Shown: positions 1 through 60,765, counted from the first letter of the stretch. The stretch: DNA of 64,000 nt from Paraspadella gotoi (GCA_051294375.1 CM119265.1:1-64000), one strand, 5' to 3'. A program made the numbers and translations. Notes: generated from the letters alone by a model not told the origin.

Positions 1-246
1 TCATTCGTGAGGCAAAAGCATCACTCTTATCCCCGCCACACTTGGCGAGACCGACATTAGGACGAAGCCAACCTTCAAGAGGGAGAAGAAGAGGACCTCA
101 ACACCTTCTGAGGTAAGATTGGGTGAATGAGATCGGGATTAAGCAATCACCCAATTCGCTCACGCCCTTCCTCTCTCTTTTTATCATAAACGTCAACTGG
201 AGTCAACAATTTCGTCGACGAACGATCAGCAAGCCCAAACGCATCG

Positions 247-1328
247 ATGAGCGACTCCGACCTGCGCTCAAGACTCCGATCCGCTCAGCGCGTCACCGAG
301 GACCCTCGGGACGGCACGACATCGCTACAGGTCCCAATTGGATTCGGAAGAGGCACGCGATCTCGCTCGACATCACCGACATTCGTTGACGCCGCGCCGA
401 CCTTCAGTTTCGGAGGCGTCAACGCCGAAAACTTCCGCGACGCCGATATGGCCACCGGCGACTCGATTCCACGCGATTTGAACGACGAAAACGCCGAACT
501 ACGTGCAGCCCTCGCCGCTGCAACAAGGGCGTTAGAAAGAGCTTCAAATCGAAAACCGGATCTCCCGGAATTCGACAAGGACAACATAGAGATATGGATA
601 AAACGCGTGGAGGCTGCATACACGCGCGCCGGCGTCGTCACACCAAAGGCAAAATTCGCTCATTTAGAGTCGAAAATTGGAGTGAAAGAGACCCAAAGAT
701 AAATCAGTTCCTCTACGGCGAAACGACGGAGGAAACGTGGGGACTCTTTCTGGAATACCTGAGAAAGGAGTACGGGCTCACCCGTCGCCAACAGGCGGCC
801 AATTTATTGGACGCCATCGACTCGGACGGCATGAAGCCGTCAAGAATCCTCGCGCGCCTTGAGGAAAGAACCCGGACCCTAACCTTAGACGACGTCCGCA
901 AGGAAAGAGTTCTGAGGGAGTTGCCTGCAGCAGTGCGTCGACAACTTGAAGACAAAGCTGATGAGTTATCAGCATCGAAGCTTTGTGAATTGGCGGATCG
1001 GCATTTTGATAGTGAGGGAAACCTCAAAATCAAACAATCTTCTTCTCTCATCAGCCACGTCGAACAGGGAAGGCGAGAGCAAAGCGAAACAGATTCTGGA
1101 GAAGAGGAGAGCATCAACGCCATCGCCAATAACCGGAAGAAGACCTTCAATGGAAAAAAGAGGCAATATCAGGCGCCAAAGGGCAAATCAAAGTCGAAAC
1201 TCCTCACTTTATGCCAAAAACATGTGAAATTTGGCGACGACGCCTGGAGCTGTGAGCCTGGGTGCTCAAAGTATGAGGAGACCAAGAAAAAGAGTGAGGG
1301 AAACGGAAGAGGGGGACGACGTCGGTGA
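247..1328 (+). CDS. gag: Gag of A1, split by an apparent 1-nt deletion near 690
   Basis: ORFs 247-702 and 594-1328 join into a protein colinear with the Gag at 29906; CQKHVKFGDDAWSCEPGC knuckle; the copy at ~14540 has the extra base restoring frame. Confidence 0.9.
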
Positions 1329-1340
1329 ATGCCGTCCCCC
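1298..1340 (+). promoter_or_regulatory. -1 programmed ribosomal frameshift signal
   Basis: G GGA AAC heptamer in the Gag frame, 6-nt spacer, GGGGGACG..CGTCCCCC stem; pol lies in the -1 frame. Confidence 0.85.
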
Positions 1341-57894: not shown

Positions 57895-58815
57895 TGCGGG
57901 GCCACCTGAGACGATTAATTTCGATTAAGAAATAATCATTCCAAAGCAGGATTCGAACCGACGAACTCAGGCCTGGGACGCTGGGACTAAAGCCAGTCAG
58001 CCAACCAGGGGGCCTTGAGTCTGAGATGATTTAATCTATTGAAATAGCTTTAACATCGATTCGAAATCTTTTGTTTTCATTTTGAATCACTAGTTTAATC
58101 ACCAATCACTAGAGGGCTTACCGCCAATTCAAAATGATTTATTCAACTGACTGTTTTTCTTTAAGAATTGATTTGTTTCTGTTTTTCACTCTGGTTTTGA
58201 ACTCAAAATAAAAACGTCGATCTTTCACATTAAAAATACTTGTTTTTATTCTTCTCTTAATGTAATAAGTCTACATTTGCCAAAGAGAAAACGTTTGATG
58301 TTAAAACTCAATCAATTTGATCTCGATTTTACTTTCTTATTTATAATGAATTAATCTTCAAAAATAATTAATTCAACTTTGATTTAAACTCATCGATTCG
58401 ATTTAATCTCATCTCAAATGATTTAATCTCGTTAAATAAATAAACAAATCGAAAACAATCAACTTCGAATAACTGTGACTCGTTTTCCCTGCCCGGTAAC
58501 CACATCTGTACTGAAGTAGATGTCCTCACGCGGTTAGTCACTTGTCACGTCCTTGTCACGCTCCGTGTCACGCTGTGGCGAGACCCCGATGTCGTGCCAC
58601 ACTTGGTGAACCAACGACGGATCAAAGCCAACCTTCAAGAAGGGATCAACTCCACTCGGTCTCCCTCCGAGGTAAGATTGGGCGGCGAAACGGGTATTAG
58701 GCAAATCGCCCAATTGCTAACACCCTTCCCCCTCTCTTTTTCGAATCCCACTGTCAACGGAGTCAACGACACAGCGAAACGATCGAGGACGCTGTAAAAA
58801 CATCACTCGTCATCA

Positions 58816-59892
58816 ATGAGCGATCCGGATCTCCGCTCTCGCCTCCGCTCCGCGCAGCGTAACGTCGAGGAGCAACGCGACCTCTCCTCGAACCTGCAGA
58901 TACCTATAGGTTTTGGACGGGGAGCAAGATCGAGATCGACATCACCAGTTTTCGCCGACGCAGCTCCGACCTTTAGTTTTCAACAAGCGANNNNNNNNNN
59001 CTTCGTCGACGCTGAGATGGCGACGGGCGGAAATAATCTACCCGATCTACAGGACGAAAACGCAGAGCTCCGCGCTGCGCTGGCCGCCGCTACGCGCGCC
59101 CTGGAACGCGCATCTAATAGAAAACCTGATTTGCCAGACTTCGACGCCTCTAATATAGAGATATGGATCAAGAGGGTCGAAGCGGCGTATACAAGGGCCG
59201 GAATAACATCTCCTAAGGCGAAATTTGCACATTTAGAGTCGAAGATTGGAGTAAAGGTCGACCCACGAATTAACCAATTCCTCTATGGCGATCCAACGGA
59301 GGCAGCTTGGTTAAATTTCATCGAATACCTACGTAAAGAGTATGGACTAACTCGACGCCAACAGGCAGCCCATTTGCTCGACTCTATCGACTCGGATGGC
59401 TTAAAACCATCAAAAATACTAGCTCAACTGGAAGAAAAAACCAGAAGTTTGACCTTGGACGACCTACGCAAGGAAAAAATCCTCAGAGAGCTCCCGATCG
59501 AAGTAAGACGCCAGTTGGAGGACAAAGCGGATGACCTGACGGCTTGCCAGCTCTGTGAAATGGCAGATCGCCATTTCGACAACGACGGCAACCTTCGACT
59601 CCGTCAGACATCCAGCANNNNNNNNNNCGTCGACAGAAATCAGCACGACCAATTCGAATCAGATTCTGATGACAACAACGACGTCAACGCGATCGGAGGA
59701 AATTTCAAACGAGGCTTTAACGCTAAGAAAAAACAAGGTCACGCAAAGAAAGAGAAAACCAAGGCCAAGCTGGTTACGCTATGTCAAAAACATGTCAAGT
59801 TCGGGAATGACGCCTGGTCTTGTGAACCAGGATGTTCCCGATACGAGGACAGTCAGAAAAAACGCGAGGGAAACGCCAAAGGGGGACGNNNN
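58816..59892 (+). CDS. gag: Gag of A3; stop codon falls in an N gap
   Basis: CQKHVKFGNDAWSCEPGC; homologous to A1 and A2 Gag. Confidence 0.88.
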
Positions 59893-60765
59893 NNNNNNAC
59901 GCCGTCCCCCTCGCTTCAACACAATCACCGTCGACAAACAATCTGCTCTACATTCGCGACGCCGCTAGCAGAACGAAATGGTTGGTCGACGGCGGGGCGC
60001 TGCTGTCAATCGTCCCGCCAACAAAAGAGCAACGGGAAGCAGGGCCCGATCCAAACATTCGTCTCCAGGCGGCCAACGGGTCGCCAATCGAGTGCTATGG
60101 AACGGTCAACAAAGTGGTGCAACTTGGCAACAGGAAGTTCAACTACGAATTCATCATCGCTAACGTCAGACAGTACATACTGGGAGCGGACTTCCTAGCG
60201 GAGAATTTTTTGGCACCCAATCACCGTGATGGACTATTACTAGATCTGCGTGACTATTCAACAATCGCCGCTTCAACGGCCACAGAAACGTCATCACATG
60301 TGAACTTTGTCGACAGAAAGGGCGAAGCCTACTACAAACTGCTCGATTCATTTCCCTCGCTAGCCACGCCCACCTTCGAAGTGAAAGAGCCTAAGCACGG
60401 AGTGACACACTCAATTCCAACTGAAGGTAGACCCTGCCAGTCCAGAGCACGGCGTCTAGACCCGGAAAAACTGGCCGTCGCTAAGCGTGAGTTAGAGAAG
60501 ATGGTTTCTCTGGGCATTGCGCGTCGAGGTAAATCCGAATGGTCGTCACCCCTCCACGTCGTCTCAAAACCGGATGGGGGGTGGCGCTGTTGCGGAGATT
60601 ACAGGCGCTTGAACTCACAAACAATCGACGACAAGTACCCGGTTAAACTTCTTACAGACTTTAACTCACAACTCGAAGGGAAGACGATTTTTTCGAAAAT
60701 CGATCTTCTGAAAGGCTATCATCAAATACCTATAAATCCTGATGACGTAAAAAAGACGGCGGTTA
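59868..60765 (+). CDS. pol: Pol N-terminal part (PR, start of RT) of A3
   Basis: GGGAAAC at 59868, [24 protein letters not shown]. Confidence 0.9.

Follow-up and report, generated by a model that had tools for sequence, protein, structure and literature searches.

Integrases of the retroviral type usually show weak base preferences, and those elements with long terminal repeats (LTRs) that are targeted precisely, such as Ty3 and Ty5, depend on host tethers. The Ty5 integrase is described as binding Sir4 (PMC4700185). The members of the CsRn1 clade (CsRn1, PwRn1 and AgCR1-14) are described as having a CHCC Gag, a -1 shift and 4-bp target-site duplications, but no preferred target bases (PMC2582038). 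Here, we describe a stretch of 64,000 nucleotides from Paraspadella gotoi (GCA_051294375.1 CM119265.1:1-64000), which as a whole is called the window. In positions 1-60765, 57772 bases (95%, as estimated in a first-pass annotation of this DNA) consist of 11 pieces of LTR retrotransposons (E1-E11), which are separated by seven tracts of the telomere repeat (TTAGGG)n. Judged by their sequence, the elements are Ty3/Gypsy LTR retrotransposons of the CsRn1 type, and it is very probable that the lineage's own DDE integrase targets (TTAGGG)n. The same annotation had proposed telomere-repeat-targeted DDE integration at one phase, which is supported by the junctions, by a short-read contig and by the grouping of the elements in one clade.

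Junctions of the elements with the telomere repeat

All five clean right ends (6321, 13128, 28910, 35881 and 46881) read CA|GGGTTAGGGTTA, that is, CA|GGGTTA, and share one phase; the chance of five right ends sharing one phase of six is (1/6)^4 = 7.7e-4. Both clean left ends, at 6442 and 47050, read TTAGGGT|TG (2/2), and the fixed joint TTA^GGGT is seen in both element orientations. The limits of the LTRs were set by alignment of sister LTRs, in which the match runs from TG to CA and no further. A sixth right end at 56033, which is absent from the first-pass annotation, reads CCCGCCACA|GGTTTAGGG in noisy sequence. Noisy left ends read TTAGGT|TG at 57895 and TTAGGG|TG at 13168, and those at 28976 and 22261 are off by one or two bases compared to the sister LTR; the seventh right end (E4, ~21916-22043) and the left end near 36130 (E7) are garbled. 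The 14 outer ends that lie outside gaps and the window edge comprise seven clean ends, five that are off by 1-2 bases in indel-rich sequence and two garbled ones, and all 14 are located at a tract. The earlier statements that every surviving outer end abuts telomere repeat and that the phase is fixed therefore hold, and all seven tracts as well as the junctions had been placed correctly.

The 4-bp GGGT target-site duplication proposed earlier agrees with the presence of GGGT on both sides of E2; however, its length is ambiguous, as duplications of 4, 10 or 16 bases look identical inside a 6-bp repeat. A length of 4 bp is adopted here as the probable one, based on the family rule and on outgroup copies: those with a detectable duplication have 4 bp in six of seven cases, and these six are all located in ordinary DNA.

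Ten LTR termini probed against the window matched only at known LTR ends; therefore, no element is nested within another, as had been stated before. Telomere repeats were not found at inner LTR edges, where a primer binding site (PBS) or polypurine tract is present instead, and none of the 11 pieces contains a tandem telomeric unit. Element-borne telomeric repeats were thus rejected, since the inner LTR edges lack repeats and LTR pairs are alike only from TG to CA. Herpesvirus 6 is an example of carried telomeric repeats that are used in recombination. Such a use of carried repeats, or telomerase healing at LTR ends, is a barely credible origin of the joints: CA|GGG has the A in common with TTAGGG and could seed telomerase; however, the left flanks have the G-rich strand on the same strand, which is a split tract and not a capped end and contradicts healing, and the inner LTR edges and the 11 pieces speak equally against carried repeats.

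The assembly is rough, with 31 N gaps in the window and indel-rich patches, and gap filling might have joined LTR ends to telomere reads. E2 is present in nine public runs from three studies, eight of which contain more than half of the E2 words; RNA runs are not listed among those with E2. The E2 interior (6880-12690) is covered in all four short-read runs compared. For the joint, contigs of these four runs (four samples, X4-X7) were compared over 12200-12360. Position 12255 is the first LTR base next to the PBS, and contigs from the outer LTR end reveal their flank there as a loose end. In run X7 (sample S4, study P2), the single listed loose end at 12255 consists of 17 bases of telomere repeat ending in TTAGGGT. 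An LTR contig begins exactly at 12255 in X6 and X7, forming a fork, and the depth bins fit exactly one unlisted non-PBS contig over 12255-12284, with a depth of 36.0 in X7 and 85.0 in X6; the flanking depths (14.1 on the PBS side and 57.9 for the LTR in X7, 110 and 217.9 in X6) fit to the decimal in three bins each, where contig depth does not equal copy number. No non-telomeric flank was found at 12255 among the 23 of 28 loose-end rows listed. TTAGGGT|TG is thus also found in a contig built from the short reads of another run, which excludes a long-read artefact as the origin of the joint.

For one family, this joint contradicts an origin by gap filling, and gluing would not yield a single phase at exact TG/CA termini in seven families. 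The gaps and indel-rich patches, a duplicated piece of 620 bases and the halves of E8 and E11, which are out of order, are in line with such an artefact, and the array order may still be artefactual; as an explanation of the joints, however, it is highly improbable. PBS-side contigs also begin 17 bases upstream, and the contigs suggest that there is a sister family whose LTR starts with the same 13 bases and is joined to the repeat in an identical phase. At 12233-12267, the short-read contigs show several further families with the same PBS but different LTRs, and the summed depth at that PBS is 3459 in X6, compared to 110 for the contig of E2 itself. Further sister families thus exist in the genome, as seen from the loose ends and the depth at the PBS.

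Descent of the lineage and properties of its integrase

The readable elements belong to seven families, which form lineage A (E1/E3, E6/E9 and E8/E11) and lineage B (E2, E7, E4 and E5), while E10 is a garbled lineage A piece. An earlier count of at least eight distinct Gypsy families is therefore matched by seven readable families plus one garbled piece, but eight are not proven and all belong to one lineage. Ungapped identity is 83.5% between E2 and E7 and 80.5% between E4 and E5. In an IQ-TREE analysis of reverse transcriptase-RNase H (RT-RH) and integrase (IN), the telomere-flanked Pols are monophyletic (96/82; six rows among 34, where 20 rows represent the 40 non-redundant ENA rows and seven the 37 outgroup rows), and FastTree recovered the same clade at 0.995 on all 84 rows. 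Integrase-only IQ-TREE gave a Shimodaira-Hasegawa-like approximate likelihood ratio (SH-aLRT) support of 91 for seven window rows among 50, with 14 further relatives outside. The families form a single clade, in which targeting likely arose once, and are not eight separate cases. An RT piece of E12, a Gypsy element at the end of the window, falls outside this clade, but covers 33% of the columns and is poorly placed.

Pol identity between families ranges from 60 to 91%; of 15 pairs, 12 are saturated at silent sites, and the three measurable ones have dN/dS values of 0.054-0.063. In contrast, the LTR pairs of E2 and E6 differ by one substitution each (1/870 and 1/688), the E11 5' LTR differs from the E8 LTR by 3 substitutions in 693, and the LTR pair of E5 by 24/811 in noisy sequence. 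Since silent sites are saturated, yet LTR pairs are near-identical, the lineage is old, kept and recently active. Its phase was thus retained through deep divergence and was still in use recently; this points to a property that the element inherits.

Relatives with accompanying DNA comprise at least 80 metagenome loci with 34-49% identity and 15 loci from prokaryote bins, all of which are outgroups. No relatives were found in viral contigs, and a scan with P0177 found none either. Three tandem telomere-type units occur in 0/95 loci among the matches listed, most of which are short and have no LTR ends; none of these 95 loci belongs to the close clade, with the long-branch locus L042 as a possible exception. 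In a 50% library, none of 14 placed proteins falls inside the telomeric clade, and a Gag search yielded three relatives. The telomere-flank trait is thus seen in one organism. In addition, this eukaryotic integrase has 36 matches in a bacterial-labelled genome (G001). Those that match best (L083, L084 and L087) have long open frames, and they likely are eukaryotic contigs in the bin.

Among the six registers of the repeat, GGGT is the most symmetric one (8 of 20 positions; TTAG has 6 and the four others 0), and it has TA on both sides. TA-N4-TA sites occur 179 times in the elements and 234 times in the tracts. As the 179 sites in elements are unused and nesting is absent, TA-N4-TA cannot be the whole rule, and recruitment to the tracts must be needed. 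Alternatively, a weak TA-N4-TA preference might act everywhere and be followed by survival and pile-up in telomeric arrays, of which the window would be an enriched corner. This would be compatible with evidence that stems from one window and one family end and with the loss of rare flanks from contigs. However, it is improbable, considering that nesting is absent despite 179 sites in harmless element DNA, that seven families are all located in tracts (~(234/413)^7 = 0.02, if sites are equal), that young copies are already within tracts and that a single non-PBS entry into the E2 LTR is found in X6 and X7.

A mechanism that combines a tether with readout of the target is considered fairly probable. 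Reverse transcription would produce a linear TG...CA copy without repeats, and the disordered integrase tail, the predicted tether, would bring the complex to telomeric chromatin, with a host telomere protein as partner. This tail is a likely tether by analogy, because the integrase of Ty5 binds Sir4. The integrase would then cut the G strand after TTA and the C strand after CTA, and this 4-base stagger would, by the family rule, generate the GGGT duplication. The local phase would be set by the pseudo-symmetric TA-GGGT-TA register, which might be read by the integrase residues whose foamy-virus counterparts contact target bases. Either cDNA end could join either strand, thereby leading to both orientations.

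In foamy virus integrase, contacts are described between Arg329 and bases -2, -1 and 3 as well as between Ala188 and the bases three positions out, and a flexible pyrimidine-purine (YR) step is favoured at the target centre (PMC4005685). By alignment, the Ala188-equivalent is A or T in 7/7 window rows, compared to S in 104/115 relatives, and differs between the lineages (T in A, A in B). A loop of the C-terminal domain (CTD) reads R[PA]G in the window rows, but RGG in 96/115 relatives. No extra DNA-binding domain was found in the integrase using Pfam or the structure model. The CTD is followed by a PGRRPGPRTR stretch and a long low-confidence tail, of which ~115 residues have a predicted local distance difference test (pLDDT) score below 50, and a terminal helix with a score of 68-78 is located behind an RFSxP...FS motif. 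The sole difference from the tail motifs of relatives lies in the spacer, which is basic and shorter in the relatives (5 residues in 60/72) and longer in the window lineage. In a large Gypsy clade in ENA assemblies (P0001-P0120), 106/120 members have the PGRRPG stretch and 89/120 have FSxP..FS with the terminal helix.

The main rival explanation dispenses with a host tether and has the integrase directly recognize two or three units of the repeat in naked telomeric DNA. The base-exact phase in both orientations and the residue changes at both known base-contact regions would fit this idea, and the tail motifs are common to relatives and thus perhaps unrelated to targeting. However, the absence of an added DNA-binding domain (Pfam, model), the use of the same phase by lineages that differ at the Ala188-equivalent and the description of yeast LTR elements as being targeted via host proteins rather than sequence (PMC4700185) make direct readout unlikely.

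Several observations weigh against a tethered, telomere-specific integrase. Half of the outer ends (7/14) are noisy or garbled. The short reads support a single end of a single family, with the flank letters read in one of four runs; X4 and X5 have no coverage of the LTR start, five of 28 loose-end rows are unseen, rare flanks are lost from contigs, and the joints in X7 and in the window may stem from one and the same insertion. An earlier integrase-only FastTree left lineages A and B unjoined (supports 0.64-0.76). The centre of the target is GG, whereas foamy virus favours YR, and plain bendability would therefore not explain the phase. Lineage-specific columns are more common in RT-RH (20/430) than in the integrase (9/350), so that the changes at the Ala188-equivalent and in the CTD loop are only a lead. 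Both tail motifs are common to relatives of unspecified flanks (FSxP..FS in 89/120, PGR[RP]PG in 106/120). Finally, TRF-type motifs have the form [FY]xLxP, and this motif is found in 0/6 tails.

Element type and layout of the window

The elements possess paired LTRs running from TG to CA, a PBS, a polypurine tract and the order protease (PR)-RT-RH-IN, which are characteristic of Ty3/Gypsy. In the Pols, Pfam detects RT, RNase H, a zinc finger and the integrase core, arranged as is typical of Gypsy, and the HHCC zinc domain and DDE integrase (PF17921 and PF00665) in 7/7 Pols that reach the integrase; the closest integrase matches are foamy-virus and Ty3 integrases. The protease was read as a VDGGA motif upstream of RT, with a Pfam protease match for E12 alone. 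The Gag CHCC motif Cx2Hx9Cx3C is present in 7/7 Gags read and in 53/95 outgroup loci among the matches listed, and gag and pol overlap with a -1 frameshift, and GGGAAAC is located just upstream of the gag stop (5/5 checked). A PBS and a polypurine tract are found in every readable element; the PBS starts with TGGTGA, TGGCGA or TGATGA followed by a CC-rich stretch, as in the outgroup copies, and might correspond to the tRNA-Trp primer site of the CsRn1 clade. The CsRn1 assignment is based on such feature marks. A chromovirus was rejected, as 20 proteins gave no Chromo match and the integrase tail is modelled as disordered, and so was a telomeric non-LTR or Penelope-like element, which would lack LTRs, have an APE or REL endonuclease or none and be found in one orientation, given the LTRs, the DDE integrase and both orientations.

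The tracts are between 39 bases and ~1.86 kb long and have the G-rich strand on the plus strand in all seven cases, while seven element pieces are in plus and four in minus orientation; three of the 11 (E2, E5 and E6) have both LTRs and are complete. E1 (1..6321, plus; lineage A, family 1) consists of the 40 terminal bases of the 5' LTR, gag (390-1328), pol (1298-5248) and a 3' LTR (5594-6321) ending in CA|GGGT, and is followed by tract T1 (6322..6441; 120 bases with GGGT at both start and end). E2 (6442..13128, minus; lineage B) has LTRs at 6442-7322 and 12255-13128, gag at 11073-12212, pol at 7477-11160 and flanks GGGT|TG and CA|GGGT; T2 (13129..13167) comprises 39 perfect bases. Of E3 (13168..15772, plus), which belongs to the same family as E1, only the 5' part with the 5' LTR (13168-13898) is present, truncated at a 25-N gap. 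E4 (15798..22043, minus; lineage B; pol 16291-19926, gag 19884-21083) has a gap-cut left LTR and is garbled from ~21917 to its right end, where the noisy T3 (22044..22260) begins. E5 (22261..28910, minus; lineage B) has LTRs at 22261-23083 and 28061-28910, pol at 23250-26900 and gag at 26852-28021, and is separated by T4 (28911..28975) from E6 (28976..35881, plus; lineage A, family 2; LTRs 28976-29676 and 35183-35881, gag 29870-31180, pol 30901-34614). After the noisy T5 (35882..36135) follows E7 (36136..41959, minus; lineage B, sister of E2), with a left LTR that extends to 36988 and has a garbled outer end, pol (37143-40772), gag (40739-41875) and another LTR cut at a 100-N gap. E8 (42060..46881, plus; lineage A, family 3) is a 3' part with a 3' LTR (46182-46881) ending in CA|GGGT, and T6 (46882..47049) has 168 bases with GGGT at both start and end. 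E9 (47050..53279, plus; same family as E6, 97.6% ungapped identity) is indel-rich and gap-cut, with its 5' LTR (47050-47774) located after TTAGGGT. E10 (53305..56033, plus) is a garbled 3' part with integrase remnants, whose end CCCGCCACA adjoins the noisy T7 (56034..57894; ~1.86 kb), and E11 (57895..60765, plus), of the same family as E8, is a gap-cut 5' part with a 5' LTR at 57895-58601.

Lineage A Pols contain an in-frame, Ser/Thr/Pro-rich tandem-repeat insert of at most ~90 residues between RNase H and integrase (3257-3412, 32813-32977), which is absent in lineage B, and lineage A LTRs contain a 20-base AT-rich tandem unit (29436-29506, 35635-35710, 47513-47582). A 620-base RT piece is duplicated at 94.6% over a 25-N gap (42060-42683, 42947-43566), which is likely an assembly duplication. 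E8 and E11 complement each other as halves, have near-identical LTRs and look like one element out of order, and the LTRs of E1 and E3 have 0 substitutions in 723; both pairs are either fresh sister copies or a single copy placed twice. Three joins between different families coincide with N gaps, and the array order is therefore provisional.

The G strand on the plus strand implies that the chromosome end is located to the right; however, non-telomeric DNA including E12 is found beyond the gap (60776-64000), and the array may be interstitial or misjoined. E12 belongs to the wider clade as a more distantly related Gypsy, whose RT is 62-65% identical to both lineages; no LTR or telomere flank is in view, and it is possibly a non-telomeric relative in the same genome. 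The first-pass annotation had raised the possibility that the elements add length to chromosome ends. The insertions lie inside existing tracts and in both orientations, and the DNA on the expected end side is non-telomeric; furthermore, an insertion within a tract displaces the end outward by the length of an element without capping it, and a role in telomere length is therefore without support here.

Comparison with known systems

The target hexamer, TTAGGG, is shared with vertebrates and with many other eukaryotes. With its joint at a single phosphodiester register of a 6-bp repeat, the lineage offers a natural test of the limits of tethering or direct readout, for which its close relatives may serve as comparison. 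LTR elements thereby join the list of telomere-repeat colonists, and since LTR pairs date each insertion, the turnover of telomeric arrays becomes measurable. It is tempting to go one step further, and we lean slightly towards the view that this is the first base-exact telomere-repeat DDE integrase of the retroviral type, belonging to an old Gypsy lineage that inserts only in (TTAGGG)n, radiated there into many families and builds arrays at chromosome ends, and that other aquatic eukaryotes may harbour the same habit in the wider clade that shares the integrase tail. The suspicion that such targeting is undescribed is upheld as far as the open literature goes, in which no report of an LTR element targeting telomeric repeats was found; Repbase, subscription journals and supplements are outside this coverage, and a prior database note is possible.

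The elements resemble the CsRn1 clade, as described in PMC2582038, in the CHCC Gag knuckle, the gag-pol overlap with a -1 shift, the order PR-RT-RH-IN, the TG...CA ends, the 4-bp duplication and possibly the type of PBS. They differ from it by their fixed telomeric target, as no target-base preference is described for that clade and six outgroup copies likewise sit in ordinary DNA without preference, by LTRs of 700-880 instead of 146-381 bases (PMC2582038) and by a long disordered Pol tail. Like Ty5 of Saccharomyces, they are LTR elements guided to telomeric regions by the integrase; however, Ty5 is of the Copia type and is described as targeting the silent chromatin of Sir4, both at telomeres and at mating loci, rather than a repeat at a fixed base (PMC4700185, PMC8909793). 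Insertion in or at telomeric repeats is shared with SART/TRAS, MoTeR/FoTeR, GilM/GilT, Tx1-1_ACar and Athena, but these are non-LTR or Penelope-like elements that are target-primed, whereas an LTR and a DDE integrase are found here, and FoTeR/MoTeR1 have one orientation, while the window elements have both (PMC10088271, PMC12857005, PMC4700185). Endogenous nimaviruses of shrimp also insert specifically in the host telomere motif; in contrast to the elements described here, they are large DNA viruses using a tyrosine recombinase, and their DDE-bearing members use (AT)n rather than telomere repeats (PMC10871703). The bdelloid LTR elements Juno, Vesta and TelKA likewise comprise many young Gypsy families of low copy number within the genome of a small animal; however, they carry a dUTPase and extra open reading frames, and the account in PMC5408684 reports no insertion in telomeric repeats for them. 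Taken together, the joint is a real feature, and the elements are members of a known clade, while their base-exact target is undescribed.

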